NCBI GenBank assembly: GCA_964465735.1
Contig: CAYXKT010000001.1
Coordinates: forward strand, 10,721-74,720
Length of the DNA stretch: 64,000 bases
Reading direction: 5' to 3'
Source: an uncultured bacterium
Lineage (GTDB): Bacteria > Auribacterota > Erginobacteria > Erginobacterales > Erginobacteraceae
Shown: positions 4,493 through 64,000 of the stretch, piece after piece
Layout of the letters: each line of letters opens with the position of its first letter
Numbering within the stretch: the first letter of the stretch is position 1
Notes under the pieces: model-generated
What the model saw: only the letters and a program-made list of their open reading frames with translations
The model's database searches: none
What the model was told of the DNA's origin: nothing
Made by a program: the position numbers and the translations under genes

Positions 4493-4561
4493 AACCCTGC
4501 ACCTTTCCGTTGATGCGGAACGGGATTGATTCGGGGCGTGCCGGACAAGAGGAAAGTTAAT

Positions 4562-5566
4562 ATGCAAAGTAATGATCCGAGTATCGTGGATCTATCTGTC
4601 ATAGCCCCGATGTACAATGAGGGTCGTTGGATAGAAAAGAATATCGAACGGCTGCTTGACACTTTGACCGGGAGGGAGGACAACTGGGAATTGATCCTGG
4701 TCAATGACGGCAGCGTCGACAACACGCTTGACCTGGTCCGGGAAAAGGCGAAAAAGGAACCCCGTCTCCGGGTGGTGACCTACCCGGAAAACCGGGGGCG
4801 GGGTTACGCCCTGCGGCAGGGGTTCCGCGCTGCCCGGGGGAAGTACGTGGTCACCACCGAGTCAGACCTGAACTGGGGCACGGAGATCATCAACAAGCTC
4901 TACGGGGAGCTCAGGCAGGGTTCCGCGGATATGGTGATAGCCTCACCATACCTGGAGGGAGGGAAGCTGGAATGCGTTCCCTGGAACCGGGTCTTTTTGA
5001 GCAAGTTTGGTAACAAGATCCTGACCTGGGCGGTGCCGGGCAAGCTGTCGATGGTCAGCGGGATGACCAGGGGATACCGGAAGGAGGTCCTGGATTCCCT
5101 GCTCTTGGAGTCCGACGGGAAGGAGATACACCTGGAAATAGTCTCCAAGGCAATCGCCAACGGTTTCCGGGTGGTCGAACTGCCGGAAGTCCTGAGCTGG
5201 AAAGGTCAGGAAGCCAGAGCCATCGAAAAAAAGTCGGGGTTCCGCTCCGGGAGCCTGATCCGGAGCCATCTCAACTTCTCCTTTTACGAGAAGCCGATGA
5301 TGCTCTTCGGCGGGGTCGGGTTGATTTTGCTCATCCTCGGGACTATCTTTGCCTTCCATATTATGCTGTTGAGATTCAAGGGAACCCTGACCCCCAACCG
5401 GCCCCTGGTGACGCTGACCATAATCTTTATCCTGGCCGGGATCCAGATCCTGACCCTTGGTTTTGTCGCGAACTATATTGGAGCTCTTAGGAAAGAAATG
5501 TTTAAAATTCAAAAACAGAACCGAGATCTGGAAAAAAAAGTTACATCGTGGGATAATAGCTTTTAA
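4562..5566 (+). CDS. GT2 polyprenol-phosphate glycosyltransferase (DPM1-like) with a C-terminal TM anchor
   Basis: IAPMYNEG, LVNDGSVD, and C-terminal TM helices (FYEKPMMLFGG...). A 3' fragment of this gene is duplicated at 14295..14844. Confidence 0.8.
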   Translation: MQSNDPSIVDLSVIAPMYNEGRWIEKNIERLLDTLTGREDNWELILVNDGSVDNTLDLVREKAKKEPRLRVVTYPENRGRGYALRQGFRAARGKYVVTTESDLNWGTEIINKLYGELRQGSADMVIASPYLEGGKLECVPWNRVFLSKFGNKILTWAVPGKLSMVSGMTRGYRKEVLDSLLLESDGKEIHLEIVSKAIANGFRVVELPEVLSWKGQEARAIEKKSGFRSGSLIRSHLNFSFYEKPMMLFGGVGLILLILGTIFAFHIMLLRFKGTLTPNRPLVTLTIIFILAGIQILTLGFVANYIGALRKEMFKIQKQNRDLEKKVTSWDNSF

Positions 5567-5800: not shown

Positions 5801-6079
5801 CAATCAATAATGTTTTTAAAAGGCTAAAGTGTTACAAATACTCTGGTTTCGCCCTTTCTCATTTGTATAGCTATGCCGACAATAAGATCCAGTTTTACGC
5901 ATAGATTAGCGTATTGTCGGAGTAAGTCATATTGCTCCCTTTTGTTCTTTTCGTCTAAATCCAGGAATGGGTTTATGGTCCGGCTTTATTCCTCCCCTCA
6001 GCTAAACAATAATAAAATTACCGAACAAATATTTGGTTGCGGCTGGTTTTATTCTTGGTGCCAATATAGTTTTAATATC

Positions 6080-6242
6080 ACCTAAATTGAGCGATTCTAT
6101 GCGGCGAACTGCACCAATCTTTTGCCTCCGAACGGATATTGAAAATCCTCGCCATATCTCCTGGATATGGCTGCGGTTTCCGCAACCCGTCGGCCAGCAA
6201 AATCTTAGCACATTTCATCCGCAATAATCGCTCAACTTAGGT
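6080..6242. mobile_element. MITE family A, copy 1 (163 bp, 17-bp TIR ACCTAAATTGAGCGATT, TSD TATCA)
   Basis: Near-identical to the copies at 14523, 46053 and 57244. The termini are perfectly inverted and flanked by a direct 5-bp TATCA. Confidence 0.85.
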
Positions 6243-6273
6243 ATCATTTTGCATAGGATATTTTTATCACCAG

Positions 6274-10758: not shown

Positions 10759-11406
10759 TTTTAGGTGTGCTTGATAAATCAAACAAATGTTCGGCTAACC
10801 GAACCGGAACTTGCGTTTAGTTCGGTTGTCGGCAGCTCGGCCTCGTTGCCGAGTCAGTACCGGACTAGCCCTCGCCAGTGGTCAGGCTGGCGGCACAGAT
10901 GCATCACGTCGATGCTTTGGATGATGTGATATCTGATCCGGGAAATCACACCATCCGGAAACCGGTGAACAAGGTGTTGCCGTATGCCCTCCTCTTCGTC
11001 TCTAAACAGTCATATTGCAGGCGATTCACTCACGCCAAGAAAGGAGGTGAACCTCTATAGAGTAACTTCCTGAAGCAATGGATGGGAAGAAGTCCCGAGA
11101 CAGCCAAAGCTGGAGCTGCGTAGCACGAGCGGTGGTTGAGGGGGAAACCCCGAAGGCCGAAGTCCGCTGACAGTGTTCACATAAGCCGGGCGAGCAAGTA
11201 TCCGGGTTGTAATGAAAGTGAACATACAAGTAGCCTCGTCACCTAAAACTTCACCAGTCGAGCCTCTGCGAATCGGGCGATTCCACCATCCAGGTGGAAG
11301 GCGAGGATGAAAAACCCTGCCGTCTCTACCGGGACGGCTGTGTCTGACGGTGCCGGGAATGCCAGGCAAAAAGCCGCTGGGGACCCGGAGAAGAGCCATC
11401 AGACGC

Positions 11407-12400
11407 TTAAAGATCCGCCGAGCTCCTGACCGCGATCCCAGGGCGGTTGAGAATGTGGGTGTAGATCGTAGTCGTGCTCACCTCGCTCTGGTCGAAAAGC
11501 TCCTGCTCGGTGCGGATACTGTACCCGGCCTTTAAAAGATGAGTGGCGAAGGAGTGCCGAAGGGTGTGTCAGCTCGCCCGCTTGGTCAACCCCGCCTTCC
11601 GCGTCGCCGCCTTGATTGCCCTCTGCAGCCCGATCGAATGCATATGATGCCGCCGGATCTTTGCGGAACGCGGGTCCGCCGAAAGGCGCCCGGCGGGAAA
11701 GACATACTGCCGGCCCCACTCCCGGGCGGAGTTTTGTCCTTCCGCTCCAGGGCGAGAGATATATATCTCCCCGAACCCTGGAAACTCCCCCCTTCTTTAG
11801 ATCCTCCTTATGGGTGGTCTTGACTTTCTCCAGGTGTTTCCCGGAGGGCAGGCCGGTATCTATCCGGCAATATCGTTCCCCGGTCCTTATTGCCTTTCCC
11901 GTCCCGGATCACGATCTGATTTTGCCCGAAGTCAATGCCCTGTACCCGGTGGCGGATACACTCGATCAACCGAAATCCCGCCCCGTAGAGCAGGCCGGCC
12001 ATCAGGGAATATGGTTCGCTCAAGGCTTCCAGCAGACGGCCCATCTCTTTTCTCCCCAGTACCATCGGCAACCGTTTGGGCTTCCGGGCCGGGGCGAAAT
12101 CGGCGATCAGGTCGAGCGGTTCCTTCAGCGCCTGGTCATAAAAGAAGACCAGGGCGTTGAGGGCCTGCCGCTGGGTAGGAGGGAGACCTTCCTCTCCACG
12201 GCCAGATATTCCAGGTACTCTCTCACCTCTTTCGCCCTCATCTCCCGGGTCGCCTTCAACCCGTGAAAGGAGAGAAACCGTCGGGCCCAGGGAGAGTTGA
12301 TCGAACAGATTGAACTGCTTGGAGAAGACCTTGCGGCACTGAAAGAGAAGCGCAGTAAGACTCTCAAGCATCTCCCCTTATCTGAACTACCCGAGTCCGA
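11407..12400 (-). pseudogene. intI: Integron-type tyrosine recombinase (IntI), inactivated by ≥3 frameshifts
   Basis: Pieces in different frames: FLSFHGLKATREMRAKEVREYLEYLAVERKVS, then ALNALVFFYDQ...LLYGAGFRLIECIRHRVQGIDFGQNQIVIRDGKGNKDRGTILP, then EWGRQYVFPAGRLSADPRSAKIRRHHMHSIGLQRAIKAATRKAGLTK (the IntI-specific additional domain), then [40 protein letters not shown]. Confidence 0.7.
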
Positions 12401-12725
12401 TCGATTTTCTCAATTGGCTTCTACGCGAAAGCACTTCGTTGACTCTATCAAGATGATTGACTATTGTACTGAAACGTCTTTGGCTGGCATCTTGCGTGAT
12501 TCGTTGGCTCGTCCCAAGGATGCACGAGCTTTGTTGCGCGATATCTATACAAATGAAGCCGACATATTTCCAGACGAGGAAGCGGGGACCTTGACTGTCC
12601 GTTTGCATCATCTGACGAACCGGTTGTCGGATCAAGCGGCAAAAGATCTTGCCAAGCATCTCAATAACAGTGAGATTATCTATCCAGGTACAAATCTACG
12701 CTCGCAGTACGAATTGGTATCATAA
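12297..12725 (+). CDS. Hypothetical protein in the attI-proximal position; its C-terminal part could be a remnant of a DDE transposase (uncertain)
   Basis: 142-aa ORF divergent from intI. No confident family assignment. The 5' end overlaps the intI start region. Confidence 0.25.
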   Translation: MIEQIELLGEDLAALKEKRSKTLKHLPLSELPESDRFSQLASTRKHFVDSIKMIDYCTETSLAGILRDSLARPKDARALLRDIYTNEADIFPDEEAGTLTVRLHHLTNRLSDQAAKDLAKHLNNSEIIYPGTNLRSQYELVS

Positions 12726-12897: not shown

Positions 12898-13080
12898 GTG
12901 TGTACTCACTACTCCGGCGAACCGCGACAGAAGGGCACGAGCCATCGGATCTATAAAACCCCCTGGAAGGGTGATCCAAGGGTCAATATCCAGAACGCGA
13001 AAGGCAAGGCGAAGGACTATCAGGTAAGGCAAGTCTTGATAGCCATCGAAAGGATACAATATGAAAGCGGCGGAAAGTGA
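12898..13080 (+). CDS. hicA: HicA-like mRNA interferase toxin with a degenerate N-terminus
   Basis: RQKGTSHRIYKTPWKGDPRVNIQNAKGKAKDYQVRQVL matches the HicA core (KGSHxxxKHP...GKDL...GTL). Only a GTG start is available. It overlaps hicB by 20 nt. Confidence 0.45.
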   Translation: MCTHYSGEPRQKGTSHRIYKTPWKGDPRVNIQNAKGKAKDYQVRQVLIAIERIQYESGGK

Positions 13081-13393
13081 TCACTATACGTATCGCGTGA
13101 CCTGGTCCGAAGACGATAGAGAGTATGTCGGACTCTGCGCAGAGTTACCCAGTTTGAGCTGGTTGGCCTCTTCTGCTGAAGCAGCTCTTCGGGGAATACG
13201 TCCTGTCGTGGCGGACGTGGTGACGGATATGAAGAGGACCAGCGAAGAACTTCCCGATCCACTTGCTGAGCGTCGTTTCAGCGGAAAATTTATGGTGCAG
13301 GTTCCTCCCGGAGTTCACAGGAATCTTGCGGTGGAGACAGCTGAGGCAGGCGTAAGTCTGAATCGCCTGGCGAGTGCCAAGCTCTCGCGATAG
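13061..13393 (+). CDS. hicB: HicB-family antitoxin
   Basis: YTYRVTWSEDDREYVGLCAELPSLSWLA...RFSGKFMVQVPPGVHRNLAVETAEAGVSLNRL is the canonical ~110-aa HicB antitoxin. Confidence 0.75.
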   Translation: MKAAESDHYTYRVTWSEDDREYVGLCAELPSLSWLASSAEAALRGIRPVVADVVTDMKRTSEELPDPLAERRFSGKFMVQVPPGVHRNLAVETAEAGVSLNRLASAKLSR

Positions 13394-14294: not shown

Positions 14295-14844
14295 GTGCTA
14301 AGCTGGAAGGGGCAGGAATCCCGAACTAAGCAGAAGAAGACGGGGTTTCGGGGTGGAAGCCTGATAAGGAGTCACCTGAATTTTTCGTTTTATGAGAAGC
14401 CGATGATGTTGTTCGGTTTTGTCGGGATGGCTCTTCTGGTACTCGGGCTGATTTTCGGTTTTCATATTATGCTTTTGCGATTCAAAGGTACCCTTACGCC
14501 GAATCGTCCGCTGGTTACTTTAACCTAAGTTGAGCGATTATTGCGGATGAAACGTGCTAAGATTTTGCTGGCCGACGGGTTGCGAAAACCGCAGCCATAT
14601 CCAGGAGATATGGCGAGGATTTTCAATATCCGTTCGGACTCAAAAGATTGGTGCAGTTCGCCGCATAGAATCGCTCAATTTAGGTATAATCTTTATCCTT
14701 GCGGGTATACAGATACTGACTCTGGGGTTTATTGCTAATTATATCGGCTCTCTCCGCAAGGAGATGTTCAAAATCCAGAAACAGAACCAGAACCTCGAAG
14801 GCAAGTTGAGCAGTTCACTGGCGAAGATTAGTCCTTCGCGATAA
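14295..14844 (+). pseudogene. 3' fragment of the 4562..5566 GT2 gene, interrupted by a MITE
   Basis: SLIRSHLNFSFYEKPMMLFG...NRPLVTLT | MITE | IIFILAGIQILTLGFIANYIGSLRKEMFKIQKQN. Confidence 0.65.
14523..14685. mobile_element. MITE family A, copy 2 (inverted orientation), inserted inside the GT2 gene fragment; TSD TTTAA/TATAA
   Basis: Same 163-bp element. The flanks continue the GT2 reading frame on either side. Confidence 0.85.
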
Positions 14845-14873: not shown

Positions 14874-16076
14874 ATGCGTGCCCTGAAAACAATCGGGTAT
14901 TTTACATTATACTATCTTTCGCAGAGAGCATTTAAGTTTCTGGGATATCTCTGGCCGAAAGACCACCAACTTCTCCTCTTCTCTGGATTGAAGGGGATGC
15001 ATTACAGCGATAACACTAAATATTTATTCGAGAGTTTTGCTCGCAATTATTCTGGTGAGTTCAAAATTGTCTGGATAACCGTTAACAAAAGTTTGCTCAG
15101 GAGCGTCGAAGAAAAGAAAATTTCCGGGGCCCGGATAATTTATCAGTGGTCTCTGGATGGTTTCCTGGCGATCCTTCGGGCTGCGGTGGTTTTTTACCTA
15201 TCGGATTCCAGTGATATCCCTTATGTCTTGTTTTCTCGAAGGACCGTTACCTGCCAGTTGTGGCACGGCATCCCGGTTAAGCGTATATGTCTTCTTAAGC
15301 CACGCTGGAATCATTATCCCCACTGGTTGGTGAAATATTTTTACTTTTCGATGTATTCATACTGGATATGCAGTTCCTCTGTCGACCGACTGGCTACCGC
15401 TCTCTGCGTCGGATTACCGATTGACCGAGTTTTGATTACCGGCTATCCGCGTAATGACTATCTGATTGAGCAAAAACAATCGTCGGCCTGCGATTTACTG
15501 GATCGTTTTCCCTACTTGCGGAAGAAAATAATCCTATATGCCCCTACGTGGCGGCAAAACAGTATTGTCCGTTTTTTCCCATTCTTCGATTATTCCCTGG
15601 GAAGAATCAACGAGTTTCTGGAGGGATCCGATGCCTTTATCTTGTTGCGTGGGCATAGATATGAACGCAGGGAAATCGGAGCCATCGATTATGATGCTTT
15701 TATTGGAGATCGGATACTTGACGCATCGAAAAGCATCTTCGAGGATGTTCAAGAATTATTGCCCCACGTTGATATTTTGATTAGTGATTATTCTGGGGTC
15801 TGGGTGGATTACCTGCTCCTGAATCGCCCGATCGTATTTGCCCCTTACGATTTGGAGGAGTTCAAGGTGGAAACCGGCTTGCTTTATAACTATGACTTCG
15901 TCACCCCCGGTCCGAAGGTTGCCACGACCGAAGAACTGATCAAGGCTCTTCGAGAATATATCCACCATCCTGAGAAAGATTCAGAGAGACGGCAATTAAT
16001 CAAAGGTCTATTCCACCAGTATGAAGATGGCCGCTCATACGAGCGGATATACGAAATCGTTAAACGGATAACCTGA
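14874..16076 (+). CDS. CDP-glycerol glycerophosphotransferase family protein (TagF/TagB-like)
   Basis: 400 aa with the ILYAPTWR motif and a C-terminal Glyphos_transf-like region. Confidence 0.75.
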   Translation: MRALKTIGYFTLYYLSQRAFKFLGYLWPKDHQLLLFSGLKGMHYSDNTKYLFESFARNYSGEFKIVWITVNKSLLRSVEEKKISGARIIYQWSLDGFLAILRAAVVFYLSDSSDIPYVLFSRRTVTCQLWHGIPVKRICLLKPRWNHYPHWLVKYFYFSMYSYWICSSSVDRLATALCVGLPIDRVLITGYPRNDYLIEQKQSSACDLLDRFPYLRKKIILYAPTWRQNSIVRFFPFFDYSLGRINEFLEGSDAFILLRGHRYERREIGAIDYDAFIGDRILDASKSIFEDVQELLPHVDILISDYSGVWVDYLLLNRPIVFAPYDLEEFKVETGLLYNYDFVTPGPKVATTEELIKALREYIHHPEKDSERRQLIKGLFHQYEDGRSYERIYEIVKRIT

Positions 16077-16093
16077 ACCTGGTTCTTGGATCT

Positions 16094-17131
16094 ATGAAAA
16101 TCTTGGTGGAAATTGCGCAACAGACCTGTGTCCAGTTTTTTAAGAATATTATCTCGACCTTGAAGAGTCGCGGGCACGAAGTTCAGGTTCTGAGCCGCGA
16201 GCGCGAATGCACCGTGGAATTGCTCAATGAGTATGGCATCGATCATTCTGTCATCAGCAAGTTCACCCCGGGTAAGTATAATTTGTTAACGGAGCTATTG
16301 GTCAGGGATTACAAAATTTGGAAGGCGGGTCGTTCTTTTCAGCCCGACTTGGTTTTAACCGCCAGCATTGCTGGTGTTCACGCGGCTAAGCTATTGCGAG
16401 TTCCCTCCCTATTGCAGAATGACAATGGAAGATCGGCTGGCTTGCTCCACCGGTTGATGGTCCCGCTTGCCACATATGTTTTGACCCCAGATTGCCAGAA
16501 CGAGGATTACGGTTCCGGCCATATTAAATATCCCGGATACAAGGAACTGGCTTATCTCCATCCCGCTAATTTCACCCCGGATTCATCCGTCCTCCAGGAA
16601 CTCGGAATTAAAGCCGGGGAAAGATTATTTATCCTTCGGTTTACCAGTCTTCAGGCTTGTCACGATGCTGGGCGGAAAGGGATGAGTTATGAGCTAAAAA
16701 ACCGGATGATTGAATTATTGCATACCCGGGGCAGGGTATTTATTTCATCCGAAGGAGTTTTGCCGGCGGAATGGGAGAAATTTCGCCTTACATTAAGCCC
16801 CGGGAAAATCCATAGCGCACTTTACTATGCCGATCTCTATGCTGGTGATAGCGGGACAATGGCTTCCGAATCATCGGTCCTGGGAACCCCAGGGATATTT
16901 ATGCTCTCTTTTTCAGGGACGTTGTATTATCTCAAGGAACTGGAAGAAAGGTACGGGTTGCTGTATCAATTTCGACATAATCAGGAAGAAGAATGTATGG
17001 CGCTTGTCCGAAACCTGTTGGATATGAAGAACTTGAAAGCGGCGTGGGCTGAAAAGCGGCAAATAATGCTGGGAGACAAGGTCGATGTCGCGGATTATTT
17101 TGTGAAGAAAATTGAAACGGTTTCGATATGA
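16094..17131 (+). CDS. DUF354-family GT-B-like protein
   Basis: 345 aa. MKILVEIAQ, SRGHEV, YYADLYAGDSGTMASESSVLGTPGI. Confidence 0.55.
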   Translation: MKILVEIAQQTCVQFFKNIISTLKSRGHEVQVLSRERECTVELLNEYGIDHSVISKFTPGKYNLLTELLVRDYKIWKAGRSFQPDLVLTASIAGVHAAKLLRVPSLLQNDNGRSAGLLHRLMVPLATYVLTPDCQNEDYGSGHIKYPGYKELAYLHPANFTPDSSVLQELGIKAGERLFILRFTSLQACHDAGRKGMSYELKNRMIELLHTRGRVFISSEGVLPAEWEKFRLTLSPGKIHSALYYADLYAGDSGTMASESSVLGTPGIFMLSFSGTLYYLKELEERYGLLYQFRHNQEEECMALVRNLLDMKNLKAAWAEKRQIMLGDKVDVADYFVKKIETVSI

Positions 17132-27099: not shown

Positions 27100-27545
27100 A
27101 ATCTTTTTTCAATGATTGCTTGCGATTGTTTCGAATAATGCGGGGGCTATTATATTAACGCAACTCTTAAAACAGCCCACGCAGCGGGCGACACATAAAT
27201 AGCCACGGGCGTTAGCCCGTGGATGATAATGGCAGATAAAACAATAGAGCCCCCGCAGGGGGCGGGACATAATTTCCTTTTGAGAGATCTGGATTGAGCC
27301 TAAAAAATTGATGTGGCACTCTTTCTGGGTGCCATCAGAAGTTGCTCCAAAAAACCCGGGACTGCCCCCCGGGCTATGATGTTGGACGCCTTTGGCGTAA
27401 TGCATTTACCCCGAAGGGGTAATACATAATATCCCGGCGAGCATTGCCGGGATCATCCGGGATCAACAGTTAATCCCGCACCCCAAAGGGGCGTCACATC
27501 AAGGTTGTATTTGAAAAGGCTAAAGTGTTACGAATATCGTTATAT
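27100..27545. repeat. Long hairpin-array repeat (≥10 consecutive short stem-loops), related to the MITE at 48640
   Basis: Units such as TGGCACnnnnnnnnnGTGCCA, CCCGGGnnnnnnCCCGGG, ACCCCGAAGGGGT and CCCGGCGAGCATTGCCGGG. It ends with the tgtatttgaaaaGGCTAAAGTGTTACgaa terminus shared with 48883 and 5821. Confidence 0.6.
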
Positions 27546-34836: not shown

Positions 34837-34965
34837 ATGTAACCGGAAAATTCCATCTCAGCGGTACCACATTCAGGTAAACAGGCAGGTGTAAAATGAA
34901 ACTGTTAGAGAAGATCTATTATGCTGTTATTGGTTAGCCGATTACGACTATCCAGGAAGTTAAAT

Positions 34966-35200
34966 ATGACACGCGCAATAACCCAAATATTAGAAGATGC
35001 ACTACGACTAAGGCCCATTCAAAAAGCAGAACTAATAGATAAACTATTCCATAGCTTTGATCACGCAACTGATCATCATATCGATGAAGCCTGGTCAGAC
35101 GAAATAGAGTCGCGCATCGATGCCTATGATAACGGCAAGATCTCTGCCACCGGCAATGAAATTCTCGATTTCAGATTCACCCCTAATGACTGTGCTTTGC
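34966..35200 (+). CDS. Putative addiction-module antitoxin component (TIGR02574-like); 3' end uncertain
   Basis: MTRAITQILEDALRLRPIQKAELIDKLFHSFD...IDEAWSDEIESRIDAYDNGKI. The ORF lacks a stop until 35400 and runs antisense to the TIR gene. Its 5' leader is duplicated at 41695. Confidence 0.4.
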
Positions 35201-41694: not shown

Positions 41695-41795
41695 TCCACG
41701 AAGCGCAGTTTTATTAACATTCAGAGTGGATTTATTATGCTGTTATCAGTAACCTATTATGACTATCTAGGAGGTTCAATATGACACGCGCAATA
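41695..41795 (+). repeat. Duplicated ~95-bp leader plus first codons of the 34966 antitoxin gene
   Basis: acattcag...atttattatgctgttat...gactatc.agga.gtt.aatATGACACGCGCAATAA is ~80% identical to 34900..34990. It is truncated after MTRAIMLAVRKE. Confidence 0.5.
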
Positions 41796-41912
41796 ATGTT
41801 AGCCGTTAGAAAAGAGTGAAAACTTTGAACTGCTTCAGGATAGAACGTGCGTCGTTTCCTGCGATCGCTATCCTTACGACTTCATTGATGTAATCGATAG
41901 GCTGGTTCAATA

Positions 41913-45635: not shown

Positions 45636-46050
45636 TCAGAGTTGGGCGACCGCCCAGTCGTGAAATCGCCGGACTTGGTTCAGCAGGGCCAGGGCTTCCC
45701 CTTTGGAGAAATCGCGGTCTTCATATTCGACCAGATTCTTCTTCGCGATTACCCTTTTTCCCAACTGTACTTTCTGTCCGATTTCTTTCAAGTTGGAGGC
45801 TTCCAGGGAGTTCAGCAATTCAACTGCCGCCATCTGGCTGATGCTTATGGAACGAATCCCGGAGTACTTAACCAGTAGGGCGTCGATAAGAAAAATGACG
45901 CAATGGACTCCGTTGAGTCCGATCGCGTTCCAGTTTTCCGCTTCCTCCGCCTGGAACATCATTTGGCAGAACTCCTTTCCCTTCTTCAGATAATCCGGAT
46001 ATTGGGTCTTATCAATTGTTCGGATCTGTCTTGTTCCGGCTGGATTGATA
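45636..46050 (-). CDS. HEPN-domain protein (partner of the upstream minimal nucleotidyltransferase); 5' end disturbed by a MITE
   Basis: Helical ~120-aa domain with an Rx4-6(H/Q) region (SISQMAAVELL). The ORF N-terminus is encoded by MITE sequence, so the true start is probably M at MMFQAEE. Confidence 0.45.
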
Positions 46051-46052
46051 CC

Positions 46053-46215
46053 ACCTAAATTGAGCGATTCTATGCGGCGAACTGCACCAATCTTTTGCGT
46101 CCGAACGGATATTGAAAATCCTCGCCATATCTCCTGGATATGGCTGCGGTTTTCGCAACCCGTCGGCCAGCAAAATCTTAGCACATTTCATCCGCAATAA
46201 TCGCTCAACTTAGGT
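46053..46215. mobile_element. MITE family A, copy 3, between the MNT and HEPN genes; TSD TACCA
   Basis: Same 163-bp element with a perfect 5-bp direct-repeat flank. Confidence 0.85.
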
Positions 46216-46236
46216 ACCAATATTCTCTCGAGGGTT

Positions 46237-46830
46237 TCACCGGTCAGAAGACGATGATTGAGTAGAATTGATTTCACCAATGGTTTTTGAGATTGATAAA
46301 TGCGGATAAATTCTTTTTCGGTTTTGATATGGGGGCGAAATACTTATCCTGAATTTCCGCATAAGGATCTGATCGATCTTATCCAGTGATTTTTCAGCGA
46401 GTGTCTTTCCTTCTAGATTATGGGTAACTACCAAGAGGTCGAGGTCACTTTGGGATGTTTCCTCTCGCCGGGCGAAGCTGCCGAAGAGCGCCAGGGAAAC
46501 GATTTTTTCTTCTGGCCCGGCCAAGCCCGCGACGATGGTGGAGATAACGTCTTCGGTTATGCTTTTCTCCTGCTCGAAGAGAGGAGCCAACAGTTTTCGG
46601 ACCAGGGGGCTATCCTCAGCAATTCCGTAGAGGTGAGTTTTTCCCGCGGTTCGCAGATTGACTACCCCCTCGTCGCGCAGTTCCCTGAGTGAGCTCGATA
46701 CTACCGAGGGACTCATACCGATCTCCCGGGCGATCGCCCGGCCGGTATGCTCGCCGTTCCGCAGGCGCAGGAACCTGAGGATCTTCAGTTTCGAACCCTG
46801 TCCGATGATCCTGTCGAGTTGCTGCTGCAT
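46237..46830 (-). CDS. wHTH plus minimal nucleotidyltransferase (MNT/MntA-like)
   Basis: LFGSFARREETSQSDLDLLVV is the GS...DxD NTase motif. N-terminal winged helix. Confidence 0.6.
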   Translation of the reverse strand: MQQQLDRIIGQGSKLKILRFLRLRNGEHTGRAIAREIGMSPSVVSSSLRELRDEGVVNLRTAGKTHLYGIAEDSPLVRKLLAPLFEQEKSITEDVISTIVAGLAGPEEKIVSLALFGSFARREETSQSDLDLLVVTHNLEGKTLAEKSLDKIDQILMRKFRISISPPYQNRKRIYPHLSISKTIGEINSTQSSSSDR

Positions 46831-48489: not shown

Positions 48490-48639
48490 CCGGAGATGGC
48501 CCTGCCGGAACGTTTTATTTGCCGGTTCTTCCATTTCCCTGTGGGATATCCCACCTCTACTTTGCCGGACTGCTCATCTTAAAACTTCTTTCCGATCAAG
48601 TGTGGTGTGGGGAAGAGGATAGACTGGAGGAAGAAGTTT

Positions 48640-48895
48640 GGTAACACTTTAGCTGTTTAAAAATATGATGTGGCACCCCTTCAGGGTGCCATCGGATATT
48701 TGGATTGCCCGATAAAACCCGGGGCGGTGCCCCGGGCTATAATGTGGGACGCCTTTCACGTCCCTTCATTGACCCCGAAGGGGTAATACATCGTAGCCCG
48801 GCGAGCATCGCCGGGATCCTCCGGGATCAAAAATTAATCCCGCACTCCAAAGGAGTGCTACATCAAGTCTGTATTTGCAAAGGCTAAAGTGTTAC
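48640..48895. mobile_element. MITE family B: 256-bp hairpin-array element with 13-bp TIRs (GTAACACTTTAGC) and an 8-bp TSD (GAAGTTTG)
   Basis: Left gaagtttg|GTAACACTTTAGC..., right ...GCTAAAGTGTTAC|gaagtttg. The interior is 8 consecutive short stem-loops homologous to 27309..27531. Confidence 0.8.
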
Positions 48896-48942
48896 GAAGT
48901 TTGATATTAAATTTCGCCTGATCCAATCAAGGGAGTAAAGCA

Positions 48943-52326: not shown

Positions 52327-52600
52327 ATGTTTCTCAGCTTGAAATCCAGGTCCTCGCGGTTGTGGCTGGGGATATTTATCGCCGCGTTTATTCTTCGGCT
52401 GGGGTATGGCCTTTCGCAGCCGGCGGAGTTCTGGGATGAGGATGAGGGGGTTTACCTGACGATGGCGGAAAACTTCCGGGCGGGGGAGGGGCTGATCTAT
52501 ACCCCTTACCGGAAGGCGGCCTTCCCCCCGCTTTATCCTTTGTTTTTGGCGGGGTTCTTGTGGGCGGGGTTTCCGCTCTTTACGGCCGCCCGGGTGGGCC
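52327..52600 (+). pseudogene. Duplicated 5' fragment (~90 codons) of the GT39-like gene at 53372
   Basis: >90% nt identity to 53430..53650 (RLGYGL.QPAEFWDEDEGVY.TMAENFRAGEGLIYTPYRKAAFPPLYPLFLAGFLWAGFPLFT), then it diverges. Confidence 0.65.
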
Positions 52601-53371: not shown

Positions 53372-54610
53372 GTGCAATCAATCGAGATGCCTCTAAACTT
53401 AGGATACAAGTCTTCCCGCCTCTGGGTCGGGATCTTTCTGTCAGCATTTCTTCTTCGGCTGGGGTATGGCCTTTTGCAGCCGGCGGAGTTCTGGGATGAG
53501 GATGAGGGGGTTTACCAGACGATGGCGGAAAACTTCCGGGCGGGGGAGGGGCTGATCTATACCCCTTACCGGAAGGCGGCCTTCCCCCCGCTTTATCCTT
53601 TGTTTTTGGCGGGGTTCTTGTGGGCGGGGTTTCCGCTCTTTACGACCGCCCGGGTTTTCCAGGCTCTTCTGGGGGCTTTCTCCTGTCTCCTGATCGGGGG
53701 GGGGTCCCGGCGGGCTTTTGCCGGGCTGGGGGAACGGGTGAGCAGGGGGGCCGGATTTCTGGCCGCCGCCCTTCTGGCGGTTTATCCGATCGCTGTTATC
53801 TATCCGGCTCGGCTGATGACGGAGAATCTGCTGATCTTTCTTCTCCCGGCGGCGGTCTTCTCTTTGTTGAAGAGCGTTTCTTCTCCCCGGGCTCTCCTTT
53901 GGATTCTGCTTGGGGGGGTGTTGCTCGGGTTGGGGACGCTTGCTCGGCCGACTCTGCTTCCTTTCGTGGTGATGGCGGTTATCTGGCTGTGTTTTGTCCC
54001 AGCCGGTCGGCGGGGTTTTTTCGTCCGGGCCGGGGTTCTGCTGGCCGGGTTTATTCTGGTTATTCTCCCCTGGCAGGTCAGGAATTACCGTGTATTGGGA
54101 GCGGTGGTTCCAGTCACCACTGCCGCCGGGGCCAATCTCTATATCGCCAACAACCCGGCCGCCATTGGGGGCTCGATGGGCTACCGCTACCTGATGCGGG
54201 AGGGGGTCTTTCATCTCGGGGAAGAGGAGGACGAACTCGCCTATAACCGGCATTACCGGGACCGGGCATTTCAGTTCATCCGGGATAACCCGGGACGGTT
54301 TTTTTCTCTATCCCTGCGGCGGTTGATCTGGTTCTACCACCTCGACTACCATTACCGGGGGCCAATAGTGCTGGTGGTCATCTTCCATCTGATGCTCCTG
54401 CTGGCCGCGATCGGTGCCTGGACCGCCCGGCGGGCCTGGCGGATGGCCCTTCTCCCTGCCCTGGCAATCCTGAATTTTACTCTGGTCCATATGGTCTTTC
54501 TCTCCGAAGGCCGCTACCGCCTCCCCCTGATCCCCTTCCTCCTCGCCTTCTCCGCCCTTTCCCTCTCCTTCCGACTTTTCAGAGCAAGAGATAGCGCTTC
54601 TGAAAAATAA
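53372..54610 (+). CDS. GT39/PMT_2-like GT-C-fold membrane glycosyltransferase
   Basis: 412 aa, ~11 TM helices. Contains a G9 tract at 53696..53704. Confidence 0.55.
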   Translation: MQSIEMPLNLGYKSSRLWVGIFLSAFLLRLGYGLLQPAEFWDEDEGVYQTMAENFRAGEGLIYTPYRKAAFPPLYPLFLAGFLWAGFPLFTTARVFQALLGAFSCLLIGGGSRRAFAGLGERVSRGAGFLAAALLAVYPIAVIYPARLMTENLLIFLLPAAVFSLLKSVSSPRALLWILLGGVLLGLGTLARPTLLPFVVMAVIWLCFVPAGRRGFFVRAGVLLAGFILVILPWQVRNYRVLGAVVPVTTAAGANLYIANNPAAIGGSMGYRYLMREGVFHLGEEEDELAYNRHYRDRAFQFIRDNPGRFFSLSLRRLIWFYHLDYHYRGPIVLVVIFHLMLLLAAIGAWTARRAWRMALLPALAILNFTLVHMVFLSEGRYRLPLIPFLLAFSALSLSFRLFRARDSASEK

Positions 54611-56385: not shown

Positions 56386-57216
56386 ATGAACAACGCTCTG
56401 ACGGTTGATGTCGAGAACTGGTACGACGCCAGTTTGCTTTCGCCTTATGTCCCCGACGGTTACCGGGATGATCGGGTGGTGGCGTCGGCCCGGGAGATTA
56501 TGGGCCTGCTGGATGAGTTTGGGGTTAGGGCGACTTTTTTTGTCCTGGGGAAGGTGGCGGCGGAGCATCCCGAGCTGGTGGAGGAGATTGCCTCCCGGGG
56601 GCACGAGGTGGCTTCTCACGGTTGGGGGCACGGTCTGGCTTACGAACAGACGGAGGAGGAGTTTGAGGAGGACCTGGTCAAATCGCTGGAGATCCTGGAG
56701 CGTCTGGCCGGGCGGAAGGTGAAGGGATACCGGGCGCCGAGTTGGTCGGTGGGGGTGGAGACCCCCTGGTTCTTCGATGTTTTAATCCGCAACGGCCTCA
56801 AATACGACTCCAGCCTTTTCCCGGTCAAGACACCGCTCTTCGGATCCCCGGACAACCCCCGCCATCCCCATATCATCGAGCGGAAGGAAGGGAGAGTGAT
56901 CGAGTTCCCCGCTTCTTCGGTGCGTTTTGGTGGGAAGACCTTTCCGCTGGGCGGGGGGGCTTCTCTGCGGCTTTTGCCTCTGGCGGTAACTAAATGGGGG
57001 ATCAAGAGAATCAACCGGGAGGGGATGGGGGCGATCGTCTATCTCCACCCCTGGGAGATGGATACCGGGATTCCCTTTCCCCCGATGCCTCGCCGGACCC
57101 GGATGCTCCATTCTCAAGGTAGGAAGGGGATGAACGGAAAATTGCGTCGATTACTGGAAAGTTTTTCCTTTGGGCCGATGGTTGATCTGCTGGGCGAGGT
57201 TTCTGGCGGTGGATGA
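56386..57216 (+). CDS. Polysaccharide deacetylase family protein (PEP-CTERM/XrtA-locus-type subfamily)
   Basis: LTVDVENWYD, NodB-like His/Asp motifs, and a C-terminal DUF3473-like region. Confidence 0.7.
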   Translation: MNNALTVDVENWYDASLLSPYVPDGYRDDRVVASAREIMGLLDEFGVRATFFVLGKVAAEHPELVEEIASRGHEVASHGWGHGLAYEQTEEEFEEDLVKSLEILERLAGRKVKGYRAPSWSVGVETPWFFDVLIRNGLKYDSSLFPVKTPLFGSPDNPRHPHIIERKEGRVIEFPASSVRFGGKTFPLGGGASLRLLPLAVTKWGIKRINREGMGAIVYLHPWEMDTGIPFPPMPRRTRMLHSQGRKGMNGKLRRLLESFSFGPMVDLLGEVSGGG

Positions 57217-57243
57217 ACCTATCCAGTTCTAAAAGTTGATTTA

Positions 57244-57406
57244 ACCTAAATTGAGCGATTCTATGCGGCGAACTGCACCAATCTTTTGCGTCCGAACGGA
57301 TATTGAAAATCCTCGCCATATCTCCTGGATATGGCTGCGGTTTTCGCAACCCGTCGGCCAGCAAAATCTTAGCACATTTCATCCGCAATAATCGCTCAAC
57401 TTAGGT
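57244..57406. mobile_element. MITE family A, copy 4; TSD TTTAA
   Basis: Same 163-bp element, with a perfect 5-bp direct-repeat flank. Confidence 0.85.
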
Positions 57407-57444
57407 TTAATTGATTGCCGGGTCAAAAAACAGTCTTGATGGTG

Positions 57445-59193
57445 TCAGTCGAGACTGTAGATCTGGATCTCGGGTCCGCGAGAGGAGAGGGGGCGGGGGT
57501 GGAAGGAGGCCAGCAGGGGGAGTTCCTCCTCTACCCTCTGGTAAAAACGGTGATGTTCCGGATAAATTTCCGCGCCCCGTAGCGAAAAGAAGATTGTTCG
57601 CACCTCATCGCTGATAATCAGGTATTCCACACCTTTCTCCCGCAGTTGCTCCAGAGAGTAACCGTCGGGAATTACCTGTGTTCCGTCCATCCCCCCGATC
57701 CGGGTGATCCGGTAATTAGTCTCCGGGACCGCCGCCAGGCGCATCCGGTGGACTTCGGCCATCTGCTCCGAGGTATGGTGGATGGTTCCGGTTTCCCCGG
57801 TCTCGTAAGCCCGGATCTTTTCCCGGATGTCGTCCGGCGTCTCCCAGAGCTGGACGGTAGCCTCGGTATCCCACTCCATCGCGATCGCGGTTCCCGGCGG
57901 GATATTGGTTTCGATCCATTTTCGGGCTTGCGTTCGGGTATCGGGGCTGGTCAGCCGGCGGTTTCCCAGGGTGGAGTTGGCCAGGGAGAGGATCAGAACC
58001 AGGGCGATAAAACCGTTCACTACCCCGATCGCCAGGCAGTAAAGGCCTTCCCGGGTGATCTTCTCCCGGAGGATTTTCCCGGCTTCGACCGCCGCCCGAG
58101 CGCCCAGGAGGGCGAAGAAGGGGATAAAGGGGAGAGAATAGCGGTAGGAACCGAAACTCCAGTTGCCCACCATCAGATAAATTATCAGGGGGTAGAGGAG
58201 CAGGAGCAGATCTTCCCGCTTCCGTTTCAGCGCCGCCCAGATCAAGCCGCCGGCAAAGACGAAGCCGAGCGGATCCAGACGGTTAAGAATGGTGAACGTG
58301 TGATAAAACATCAGGCGCGGGTAGATCAGCCAGGCGGTGCCTGTCCTGGTTCCGAATGTCCCTTCCGCTCCCAGGTGCGAACGAAATTCCAGGGATTCAT
58401 AGAAGTTTTGAAAGTCGAGAAAGTTATATGGGGAAGCGATAAAGAAGAAGAGGGCCAGGAAAAATCCCGAGACGACAACCGGCCAGAATAATCGGGAGAA
58501 GGTGAGTTTTTCACCTCTCGAGGTCAGGTAAAATATATGGGCCAGAATGATGGGGAGGATGAGGATCCCCGGAGAGTACTTGGTCGCCGTACCCAGGCCG
58601 GTCAGGATTCCGGCCCAGATGTAGTTTTTCAACTTTCCGGTCCGCAGGATCCGGATGATGAAGATATAGGCGGCGAGGATGAACATCGTCTGGAGAATAT
58701 CGGTGACGATAAAATGGGAGAGGAAGACGAAGTAGGGGAGGGTGGCCAAGAACGCGGCGGCGAGCAGACCGATCTTTTGACTGCGAAAAGTTTCTCGGCC
58801 CAGCTTGTAGAGGAGGGCGACGGTGGCTGTCCCGATCAGGGCGTTGGCGATCCGGCCGATCAGGTAGAAGCTCGAGGGGTCGGAAAAGAAGAGGAGCTGG
58901 AATTCGGTCGCCGAGGCGAACAATCCCACCAGCTGACCGGCGATAAAATAGAGAATATAGAGGGCGAAGAGAAGATACATACTCAGGGCGGGATAGTTGA
59001 AGTAGTGGGGATTGAGATCGCCGAGGCCGAAGGCGAGAGCGTTGTTGACGATCCTTCCCTCGTCGGGGTAGTAGCGGTTGGGCAGACCGTAGGAGACGCC
59101 CCAGAGGTTGAGCAGAAGTGAGAGGATGATCAGCCCGGCCAGCAGGAGGCCGGCGGATCGGTTATTTTTTAATTTCATAAGAATCCCAGCCAA
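57445..59193 (-). CDS. ArnT/PMT-like GT-C-fold membrane glycosyltransferase (GT39/83-like)
   Basis: 582 aa, polytopic. N-terminal loop YGLPNRYYPDEG with R/K-rich motifs. Confidence 0.6.
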   Translation of the reverse strand: MAGILMKLKNNRSAGLLLAGLIILSLLLNLWGVSYGLPNRYYPDEGRIVNNALAFGLGDLNPHYFNYPALSMYLLFALYILYFIAGQLVGLFASATEFQLLFFSDPSSFYLIGRIANALIGTATVALLYKLGRETFRSQKIGLLAAAFLATLPYFVFLSHFIVTDILQTMFILAAYIFIIRILRTGKLKNYIWAGILTGLGTATKYSPGILILPIILAHIFYLTSRGEKLTFSRLFWPVVVSGFFLALFFFIASPYNFLDFQNFYESLEFRSHLGAEGTFGTRTGTAWLIYPRLMFYHTFTILNRLDPLGFVFAGGLIWAALKRKREDLLLLLYPLIIYLMVGNWSFGSYRYSLPFIPFFALLGARAAVEAGKILREKITREGLYCLAIGVVNGFIALVLILSLANSTLGNRRLTSPDTRTQARKWIETNIPPGTAIAMEWDTEATVQLWETPDDIREKIRAYETGETGTIHHTSEQMAEVHRMRLAAVPETNYRITRIGGMDGTQVIPDGYSLEQLREKGVEYLIISDEVRTIFFSLRGAEIYPEHHRFYQRVEEELPLLASFHPRPLSSRGPEIQIYSLD

Positions 59194-61840: not shown

Positions 61841-62554
61841 ACTATGATTTTTGGAAAGAAAATATCTCTGGTGATCCCGGCCCATAATGAGGCCGAGGGG
61901 CTGGCGCACTTGCTCCAGGATACCCCGGATTATCTCGACGAGATCGTGATCGTCGATAATAACTGTACCGACGATACCGCCGCGGTCTGCCGGAGTTTTG
62001 GCTGTCGGGTGGTGGTGGAGCCGAAGCAGGGCTATGGGGCGGCCCTGAAGGCGGGTTTCCGGGCGGCGACCGGGGATCTGATTATGACGATGGACGCCGA
62101 CGGGACCTGTCTCTTTGAGGGCTATCGGCGGATGATCAAGCACCTGGTCGATCACGACCTCGATTTTATCACCGCCCGGCGGGTCCCCGACCGTTTCCGG
62201 ACCCTGGTCAGTTTAATGCGGTTTCTCGGGGATATTTTCCTGGATGTTGTCTGCTGGTGCCTCTTCGGGTTCTGGGTCTTCGATTCGCAGTCCGGGATCT
62301 GGGTCTTCCGGCGGGATATTCTCGAGCGGGTGACGCTGGAGAGCGACGACTGGGCTCTCTCCGAAGAGTTCAAGATTGAGGCCTTTACCACCCCGGAAAT
62401 CAAGGCGGCGGAACTACCCGTCCTCTATATCAATGTCCGGCTGGGCGAAAGTAAATTAAGGATGTGGAGGGACGGCTTCGCCAATCTCCACTTTATGTTG
62501 AAAAAATGGCGGAAGAAAAGAAGAACTCGGCCGGCCTCCCCTCGATCTCGGTAA
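61841..62554 (+). CDS. GT2-family glycosyltransferase (short, DPM1-like catalytic domain)
   Basis: ISLVIPAHNEAEGL, IVDNNCTDDT, MDADGT. Confidence 0.7.
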   Translation, partial: TMIFGKKISLVIPAHNEAEGLAHLLQDTPDYLDEIVIVDNNCTDDTAAVCRSFGCRVVVEPKQGYGAALKAGFRAATGDLIMTMDADGTCLFEGYRRMIKHLVDHDLDFITARRVPDRFRTLVSLMRFLGDIFLDVVCWCLFGFWVFDSQSGIWVFRRDILERVTLESDDWALSEEFKIEAFTTPEIKAAELPVLYINVRLGESKLRMWRDGFANLHFMLKKWRKKRRTRPASPRSR

Positions 62555-62673
62555 TCATCCCCGCCCTCAACCCCGGTCCGGAACTGGCGGAGTGCCTGGA
62601 GCCGCTCCGGAAAAGTTCCGACCCCCGGTTCTATCCCCGCCTGTTTGAGGAGTCCCTGGGTATCAATTGAACC
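62506..62673 (+). pseudogene. Duplicated 5' fragment (~55 codons) of the GT2 gene at 63514
   Basis: MAEEKKNSAGLPSISVIIPALNPGPELAECLEPLRKSS compares with MEAEKKNSSGLPFISVIIPAYNPGPELAECLEPLRKSS. ~90% nt identity over ~160 bp. Confidence 0.65.
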
Positions 62674-63492: not shown

Positions 63493-63513
63493 TCCCGCCC
63501 CCTAGCTGAAAAA

Positions 63514-64000
63514 ATGGAGGCAGAAAAGAAAAACTCGTCTGGACTCCCCTTCATCTCGGTAATCATCCCCGCTTACAACCCCGGTCCGGAATTGGCGGAG
63601 TGTCTGGAGCCGCTCCGGAAAAGTTCCTACCCCCGGTTTGAGGTCCTGGTGGTTGATGACGGATCCCCTGTCCCTGTGGAGGTGGAAGAACCCTTCCGGG
63701 TGGTCCGGCTGGCGGAGAACTCCGGCCCGGCCGCGGCCCGTAATGCGGGGGTGGAGGCGGCGGGGGGGGAGATCGTCCTCTTTGTCGATACCGATGTTGT
63801 GGTCGGAGGCGACTGCCTGGAGATCGTCGGGGAGTTCTACCGGGATGGGACGAGGCGGGATCGGGGGCTGACCGGGGTCCAGTCGGAGGGTATGAAGTAC
63901 TCCAACTTCGCCAGCGTTTACAAAAATCTCTGGCTCCGCTATTCCTTCCTCTGGGCGCCGCGGGAGTCGGGGCTTTTCTATACCAGTATCGCAGCGGTTC
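63514..64000 (+). CDS. GT2-family glycosyltransferase (partial; continues beyond the window)
   Basis: ISVIIPAYNPG, VLVVDDGS, FVDTD. Contains a G8 tract at 63762..63769. Confidence 0.7.
   Translation, partial: MEAEKKNSSGLPFISVIIPAYNPGPELAECLEPLRKSSYPRFEVLVVDDGSPVPVEVEEPFRVVRLAENSGPAAARNAGVEAAGGEIVLFVDTDVVVGGDCLEIVGEFYRDGTRRDRGLTGVQSEGMKYSNFASVYKNLWLRYSFLWAPRESGLFYTSIAAV

Follow-up and report, generated by a model that had tools for sequence, protein, structure and literature searches.

A 161-bp MITE with four copies in a 64-kb bacterial window shares its 16-bp ends with IS1380-type transposable elements

Bacterial MITEs, such as the Correia elements of Neisseria, ERIC, TIMEs and the cyanobacterial elements, are small, have inverted ends and a target duplication, occur in many copies in or between genes, and fold over their whole length into a hairpin. 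Among autonomous elements, those of the IS1380 family in ISfinder terms make a 4-5-bp duplication and have ends that start with CC, and Tn3-type ends are 38 bp long and start with GGGG. TIMEs are Tn3-derived and make 5-bp duplications (PMC4133298). The IS1380-family member IS1247 is 1672 bp long, with an IR of 16/13 and a DR of 5 (PMC3281130, Table 2), and IS1380 transposases have served as the prokaryotic outgroup of piggyBac (PMC10813416). In the literature searched, we found no paper that links a MITE to IS1380 and none with the end sequence described here.

The DNA analysed is a 64-kb stretch, referred to below as the window. Sequence reading and a repeat finder revealed that it holds four near-identical copies of one repeat family, each bounded by the 16-bp end CCTAAATTGAGCGATT on one side and, on the other, by CCTAAGTTGAGCGATT, also 16 bp long, in which position 6 is G:

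6081..6241, + strand: MITE copy 1, 161 bp; 5-bp duplication TATCA at 6076-6080 and 6242-6246; CCTAAATTGAGCGATT at 6081-6096, CCTAAGTTGAGCGATT at 6226-6241 (-)
14524..14684, - strand: MITE copy 2, inverted; flanks TTTAA (14519-14523) and TATAA (14685-14689), a 4/5 match; CCTAAATTGAGCGATT at 14669-14684 (-), CCTAAGTTGAGCGATT at 14524-14539 (+)
46054..46214, + strand: MITE copy 3; duplication TACCA at 46049-46053 and 46215-46219; CCTAAATTGAGCGATT at 46054..46069 (+), CCTAAGTTGAGCGATT at 46199..46214 (-)
57245..57405, + strand: MITE copy 4, identical to copy 3; duplication TTTAA at 57240-57244 and 57406-57410; CCTAAATTGAGCGATT at 57245-57260, CCTAAGTTGAGCGATT at 57390-57405 (-)

A search of the window with the 16-mer CCTAAATTGAGCGATT, allowing up to 3 mismatches, returned exactly 8 sites, which are both termini of each copy (0.62 expected by chance; 0/100 shuffles got to 8). 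Direct reading, the repeat finder and this search thus all place the four copies where an earlier note on this DNA had placed them. Two details of that note have to be corrected. The element proper, CC...GG, is 161 bp long, and the 163 bp given before took in one base of each duplication. Moreover, the TIRs described as perfect over 17 bp are complementary at 15/16 positions in all four copies (16/17 in the earlier numbering), with an A/G mismatch at position 6 that places A on one end and G on the other in every copy. As is typical of a MITE, the element is short and without a transposase gene, has inverted ends, and is flanked by a duplication of fixed length that varies by copy. Alignment of the copies, which the earlier note had proposed as a measure of divergence, gave 0-4 pairwise differences in four variable columns. 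Copies 1 and 2 have two private substitutions each, and copies 3 and 4, separated by 11 kb and set in unrelated surroundings, agree at all 161 positions, which may reflect recent movement. Current activity, as in the earlier description of the family as active-looking, is no more than suggested by this near-identity, two identical copies included.

Perfect 5-bp target duplications, each of different sequence, flank three of the four window copies (TATCA, TACCA and TTTAA); for these the 5-bp duplications claimed before hold, and for copy 2 the claim has to be qualified, its flanks being imperfect (TTTAA/TATAA, + strand). We pooled the window copies with the listed genome loci and the metagenome loci presented below, which gave 137 unique short-element sites. 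The 5-bp repeat was perfect at 85/137 sites and had one mismatch at 29/137; a repeat of 3, 4 or 6 bp fitted only 2-7 sites, and one of 7 bp fitted no site. The duplication consensus is T-W-W-W-A (T in 83/85, A in 82/85), and the commonest duplications are TTAAA, TTTAA, TAATA and TATTA. The first two contain the TTAA target of piggyBac, a preference that fits the relationship between IS1380 and piggyBac, whereas the family differs from piggyBac in its 5-bp T-W-W-W-A target, as opposed to a strict 4-bp TTAA, and in having no piggyBac-type protein.

A filled and an empty allele of one site were found in two related metagenome contigs, L186 and L226, which align collinearly for 4.4 kb at 87% on one side of it and for 0.66 kb at 97% on the other. 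In L186, a 161-bp element 80% identical to the window MITE lies between two TTACA sequences; the same site in L226 is a single TTACA. Together, the flanks that differ by copy, the 5-bp register of the pooled sites and this empty site establish that the direct repeats are a genuine target duplication and not part of the conserved element. We also considered a 163-bp element (A-CC...GG-T) with a 3-bp duplication, which looks alike because the target begins with T and finishes with A. Members with the duplications TTTTT, ATCTC and AGCTA, whose 5-bp repeat is perfect in the absence of the flanking A/T, together with the L186/L226 empty site, ruled out this model; because these three duplications do not fit T...A, the flanking A and T belong to the target and not to the element. 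Likewise rejected was a composite transposon in which copies 1 and 2, inverted relative to each other, would enclose the 8.3-kb segment between them: copy 1 is flanked by a perfect duplication of its own, and the outer flanks differ (TATCA vs TATAA). A second filled/'empty' pair (L200 726-886 vs L169 9104-9213) was rejected as a clean empty site because the 'empty' allele lacks 10 further adjacent bases; a paralogue, a deletion and an excision footprint could each account for it.

The earlier note had reasoned that an autonomous partner with the same termini should exist elsewhere, and had suggested a search for longer elements. We scanned one genome per species (596 Gb) for CCTAARTTGAGCGATT and obtained at least 117 loci, all of them in metagenome-assembled genomes among the matches listed, with record titles that refer to sediment, saline, lake and similar sources. 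By arithmetic, chance alone should produce about 550 matches in 596 Gb to a 16-mer that has one two-fold position, and only paired ends were counted because single unpaired matches are expected at that frequency. We found that long elements of 1727-1766 bp with the same 16-bp ends are present in other genomes, accompanied by truncated relatives. Their transposase genes were compared with NF033539, the NCBIfam model 'IS1380 family transposase', which has a cut-off of 180 bits:

L076: 1728 bp; perfect duplication ATCTC; one intact ORF of 467 aa, 218 bits on NF033539
L098: 1728 bp; one intact ORF of 461 aa, 194.6 bits on NF033539
L028: 1766 bp; perfect duplication AGCTA; transposase gene frameshifted
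L090: 1444 bp; truncated long element with a CCTAAATTGAGCGATT end

The ORFs of L076 and L098 also match Pfam DDE_Tnp_1_4. Partial or degraded copies lie at contig ends in L001, L053 and L050 (tblastn), and plasmid pDCAR1 of Solidesulfovibrio carbinolicus DSM 3852 carries a 1727-bp copy with slightly diverged ends. A partner with the same ends therefore exists in other genomes, with two intact representatives over the IS1380 cut-off, and none was found in the window, where tblastn detected no encoded IS1380-type transposase. The transposases found are 435-467 aa long, against which the 161-bp element has no coding capacity, as had been claimed. Their mutual identity is only 37-44%, and the 16-bp end is almost invariant despite this divergence. 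The end downstream of the transposase gene is always CCTAAATTGAGCGATT (L076, L098, L028, L090, L001 and L050), and the end upstream varies at positions 5-7; the CCTAAGTTGAGCGATT end of the MITE corresponds to this variable end. Moreover, a MITE (L038) occurs together with an autonomous copy (L098) in one Bacteroidales genome bin.

The likeness between the MITE and the sampled IS1380-type elements stops at their ends. Similarity to all sampled autonomous or truncated elements ceases at base 16-21, and the interior is unrelated beyond; a truncated 714-bp IS1380 copy (L149) likewise has only the 16-bp ends in common with the window element. Because nothing but these ends is shared, the MITE is no visible deletion derivative of the sampled ISs, and it is by the ends and the duplication length that the MITE is paired with IS1380. 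A parent IS may lie outside the elements sampled. An additional scan of JGI metagenomes with a 22-nt left subterminal query gave more than 120 loci sharing the left end, with no autonomous parent among them. Compared by description, IS1380 ISs (e.g. IS1247, ISEcp1 and ISPme1) resemble the MITE in their CC-starting ends, in their 5-bp duplication and in the 16-bp end found on elements of 1.73 kb. In contrast, the MITE is 161 bp long, has no transposase gene and has an interior unrelated to the sampled ISs past base 16. Other bacterial MITEs differ from it in their ends and in the associated transposase family.

We conclude that the four copies are very probably a 161-bp non-autonomous transposon, a MITE, moved in trans by an IS1380-family DDE transposase. 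The finding that the same ends bound IS1380 transposase genes whose products match DDE_Tnp_1_4 supports the earlier view of a non-autonomous element mobilised by a DDE enzyme. According to the proposed mechanism, an IS1380-family transposase acting in trans would recognise the 16-bp ends CCTAARTTGAGCGATT and cut the target with a 5-base stagger, with a preference for T-W-W-W-A; repair of the stagger would then give the 5-base duplication. The cleavage chemistry is presumably that of this scheme, and we infer that an IS1380-type transposase is present now, or was recently, in the host and moves the copies. It is hard to credit the alternative that the copies belong to another 5-bp-duplicating transposase family, for instance Tn3-type (TIME elements) or IS701-type, and match IS1380 ends by coincidence. 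A 5-bp duplication is not exclusive to IS1380 and the cognate enzyme was not seen in the window, but the ends are identical at 16/16 positions to those of at least six independent IS1380-transposase elements from four or more phylum-level groups, which excludes coincidence. Furthermore, the MITE ends are 16 bp long and start with CCTAA, unlike the 38-bp GGGG ends of Tn3-type elements and TIMEs.

Exact-protein matches located the same genes as in the window on short contigs from SRR11702754/55/70/71, SRR29792785/793/802 and the ENA assembly ERZ1761208 ('JX_farmland'). These same-organism contigs end 20-50 bp within a MITE copy, and the presence of the copies explains why the short-read assemblies break there. 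The exception is L248, an ERZ1761208 scaffold (1731-2307) that passes through copy 4, beyond which comes another right flank (TAATA...) with an unrelated gene. This flank, TAATAGATAA..., followed by an ORF starting MNKASREELV, is absent from the window. Either one or more additional copies exist beyond the window, or the scaffold was joined chimerically at the repeat. In the same-organism short-read contigs, which are filled or break inside the element, none of the four window copies had an empty site. That all of these contigs have filled sites is what one would expect of dead relics, that is, of a family that was once mobile in a host now without a matching transposase, its near-identity being due to gene conversion or to recent loss of the enzyme. 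The window without a transposase and the missing parent element among 120 metagenome loci sharing the 45-nt left end point the same way. However, a 64-kb window covers little of a genome, no difference separates copies 3 and 4 in spite of their distance and unrelated contexts, and homologues are polymorphic between related strains (L186/L226). We therefore regard relics as unlikely, while granting them appreciable weight.

The whole element is an imperfect palindrome that folds end to end as one long hairpin. Folding of the two strands gave -64.8 and -84.7 kcal/mol, with z of -7.2 and -10.0. In 14 relatives (72-100% identity), 95.8% of cells are paired, compared with 29-46% in slid controls; 7 pairs are changed on both sides, a number matched by only 1/500 shuffles, and the strand starting CCTAAG folds better in 14/14. 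Such strong folding, retained pairing and strand preference are what a structured RNA or DNA hairpin kept for a host function (a terminator, RNA stabiliser or regulatory RNA), and not a selfish element, might produce. Several results make this improbable. Rfam at the gathering threshold gave nothing on the MITE copies, its sole window match lying elsewhere (11080-11217); no promoter-like site was found on the element, and the only terminator-like match was at shuffle level. The copies have mixed orientation to host genes, two of them sit in gene remnants, and the covariation stems from few independent events among related sequences. Moreover, 31/33 clusters that have unrelated interiors and share only the ends fold far better than shuffles, without a consistent strand bias. 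Strand-specific folding as a sign of RNA function was consequently rejected: it is consistent in the window subfamily, not across the other clusters, and mostly inherited. In our view, the hairpin is common to elements with these ends in general and does not point to a host RNA function. Because so many unrelated clusters fold strongly, the hairpin looks tied to how such elements arise or move; its role might be to bring the ends together or to act at the level of RNA.

Although the MITE belongs to an ordinary, known class, its set of relatives is unexpectedly broad. The same 16-bp end also bounds dozens of unrelated, hairpin-forming elements of 39-500 bp in about 10 phylum-level groups from sediment and soil genomes. 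Pairing of ends within the genome loci yielded short elements by the dozen, 39-310 bp long and diverse in their interiors. Full-length homologues of the window MITE at 72-78% identity were located mostly in Thermodesulfobacteriota bins and in one Gemmatimonadota bin. Many of the metagenome elements have their first 45 and last 26 nt in common with the window element and differ in their interiors, in size variants of 161, 191, 196, 226, 253, 278 and 497 bp. Among the matches listed, the best full-length metagenome match was 92.6% and none was identical to the window copies; no synteny was detected between the window and the fetched loci. Overall, paired-end elements range from 39 to 497 bp, and the interiors of the clustered elements, 96-405 bp long and hairpin-forming, are of at least 33 unrelated kinds. 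End-sharing elements occur in Thermodesulfobacteriota, Bacteroidota, Chlorobium, Nitrospirota, Nitrospinota, Planctomycetota, Gemmatimonadota, Deferribacteres and others. We tentatively suggest, as a possibility that we rate just short of even, that the window copies belong to an undescribed cross-phylum MITE superfamily served by one IS1380-type transposase clade. The assignment to the IS1380 family, a prokaryotic relative of piggyBac, is new as far as the literature searched is concerned, in which no IS1380 MITEs have been described. For annotation, CCTAARTTGAGCGATT together with a 5-bp T-W-W-W-A duplication provides a signature for this widespread repeat family of anaerobic sediment and soil bacteria.

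Among the relatives, we observed mini-elements of 43-55 bp that are barely more than two 16-bp ends, in Bacteroidales, Desulfobacterales and other bins, some of them with perfect 5-bp duplications (e.g. TCTCA and TATTA):

L011 1506-1548: mini-element
L023 96-139: mini-element
L019 70-115: mini-element
L015 6383-6428: mini-element
L039 7458-7509: mini-element
L009 433-487: mini-element

Elements of 209 bp with the same ends were also present on two predicted viral contigs of IMG/VR (L251 222-430 and L253 9204-9412). The few viral contigs with short elements carried no transposase.

The presence of the MITE accounts for four repeats in the window, for two interrupted gene remnants and for the splitting of a likely toxin-antitoxin pair. 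Copy 1 lies inside a 120-codon C-terminal remnant that resembles LPG_synthase_TM (31 bits, just under the cut-off). The other three copies have the neighbours that the earlier note had assigned to them. Copy 2 interrupts a C-terminal GT2 fragment that covers only residues 218-341 of an intact paralogue at 4526-5566. When copy 2 and one duplication are taken out, the frame of the fragment is open again, and the target so reconstructed lacks two codons relative to the paralogue. As a proxy for the empty site of copy 2, the paralogue was ambiguous and was set aside: removal of 160 or 166 nt is in frame in both cases, and the end of the element mimics ACC of the paralogue. Copy 3 lies 21 bp past the stop of an HTH-nucleotidyltransferase (MNT) gene (46237-46830, - strand) and just upstream of a HEPN-like ORF whose match is weak (Pfam E=0.009, below the cut-off). 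In this position, copy 3 divides what is probably a toxin-antitoxin pair. The HEPN-like ORF (45636-46184) is open from a - strand GTG at 46184, inside MITE copy 3, and in the sequence reconstructed as it was before the insertion, no ATG, GTG or TTG precedes the start of the HEPN domain. Copy 4 is intergenic and begins 28 bp past the stop of a polysaccharide deacetylase gene (56386-57216, +), which converges with a PMT_2 glycosyltransferase gene (57445-59193, -).

The 8-kb stretch between MITE copies 1 and 2 contains much mobile-element debris and gene remnants:

11080-11217, + strand: Rfam match to group II intron domains D1-D4 (RF02003, 57.9 bits vs a gathering score of 49)
11399-11719, - strand: ORF that may carry the C-terminal part of an integron integrase-like gene
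11808-12371, - strand: ORF resembling the middle of an integron integrase (TIGR02249, 127.7 bits, cut-off 265; model 62-175 of 315)
12297-12725, + strand: C-terminal fragment, Pfam Transposase_29 (111 bits, model 423-562 of 562)
13061-13393, + strand: HicB antitoxin-like ORF

The intron match looks like a fragment because the five ORFs near it have no Pfam match to a reverse transcriptase, and the integron integrase-like ORF at 11808-12371 adjoins it. Elsewhere in the window, a motif of about 27 nt, TTTGAAAAGGCTAAAGTGTTACGAATA, occurs four times (5814-5840, 27510-27536 and 48874-48900, and inverted at 48638-48669). In the polysaccharide gene region, at least two of the four occurrences closely precede long + strand ORFs, and the motif is possibly a site of regulation or a further small repeat. 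Finally, diverged segmental or paralogous duplications with 81-90% identity are found among the polysaccharide-synthesis genes:

439-1602 vs 15216-16383: duplication
52327-52595 vs 53387-53655: duplication
62499-62651 vs 63507-63659: duplication
34900-34981 vs 41716-41796: duplication
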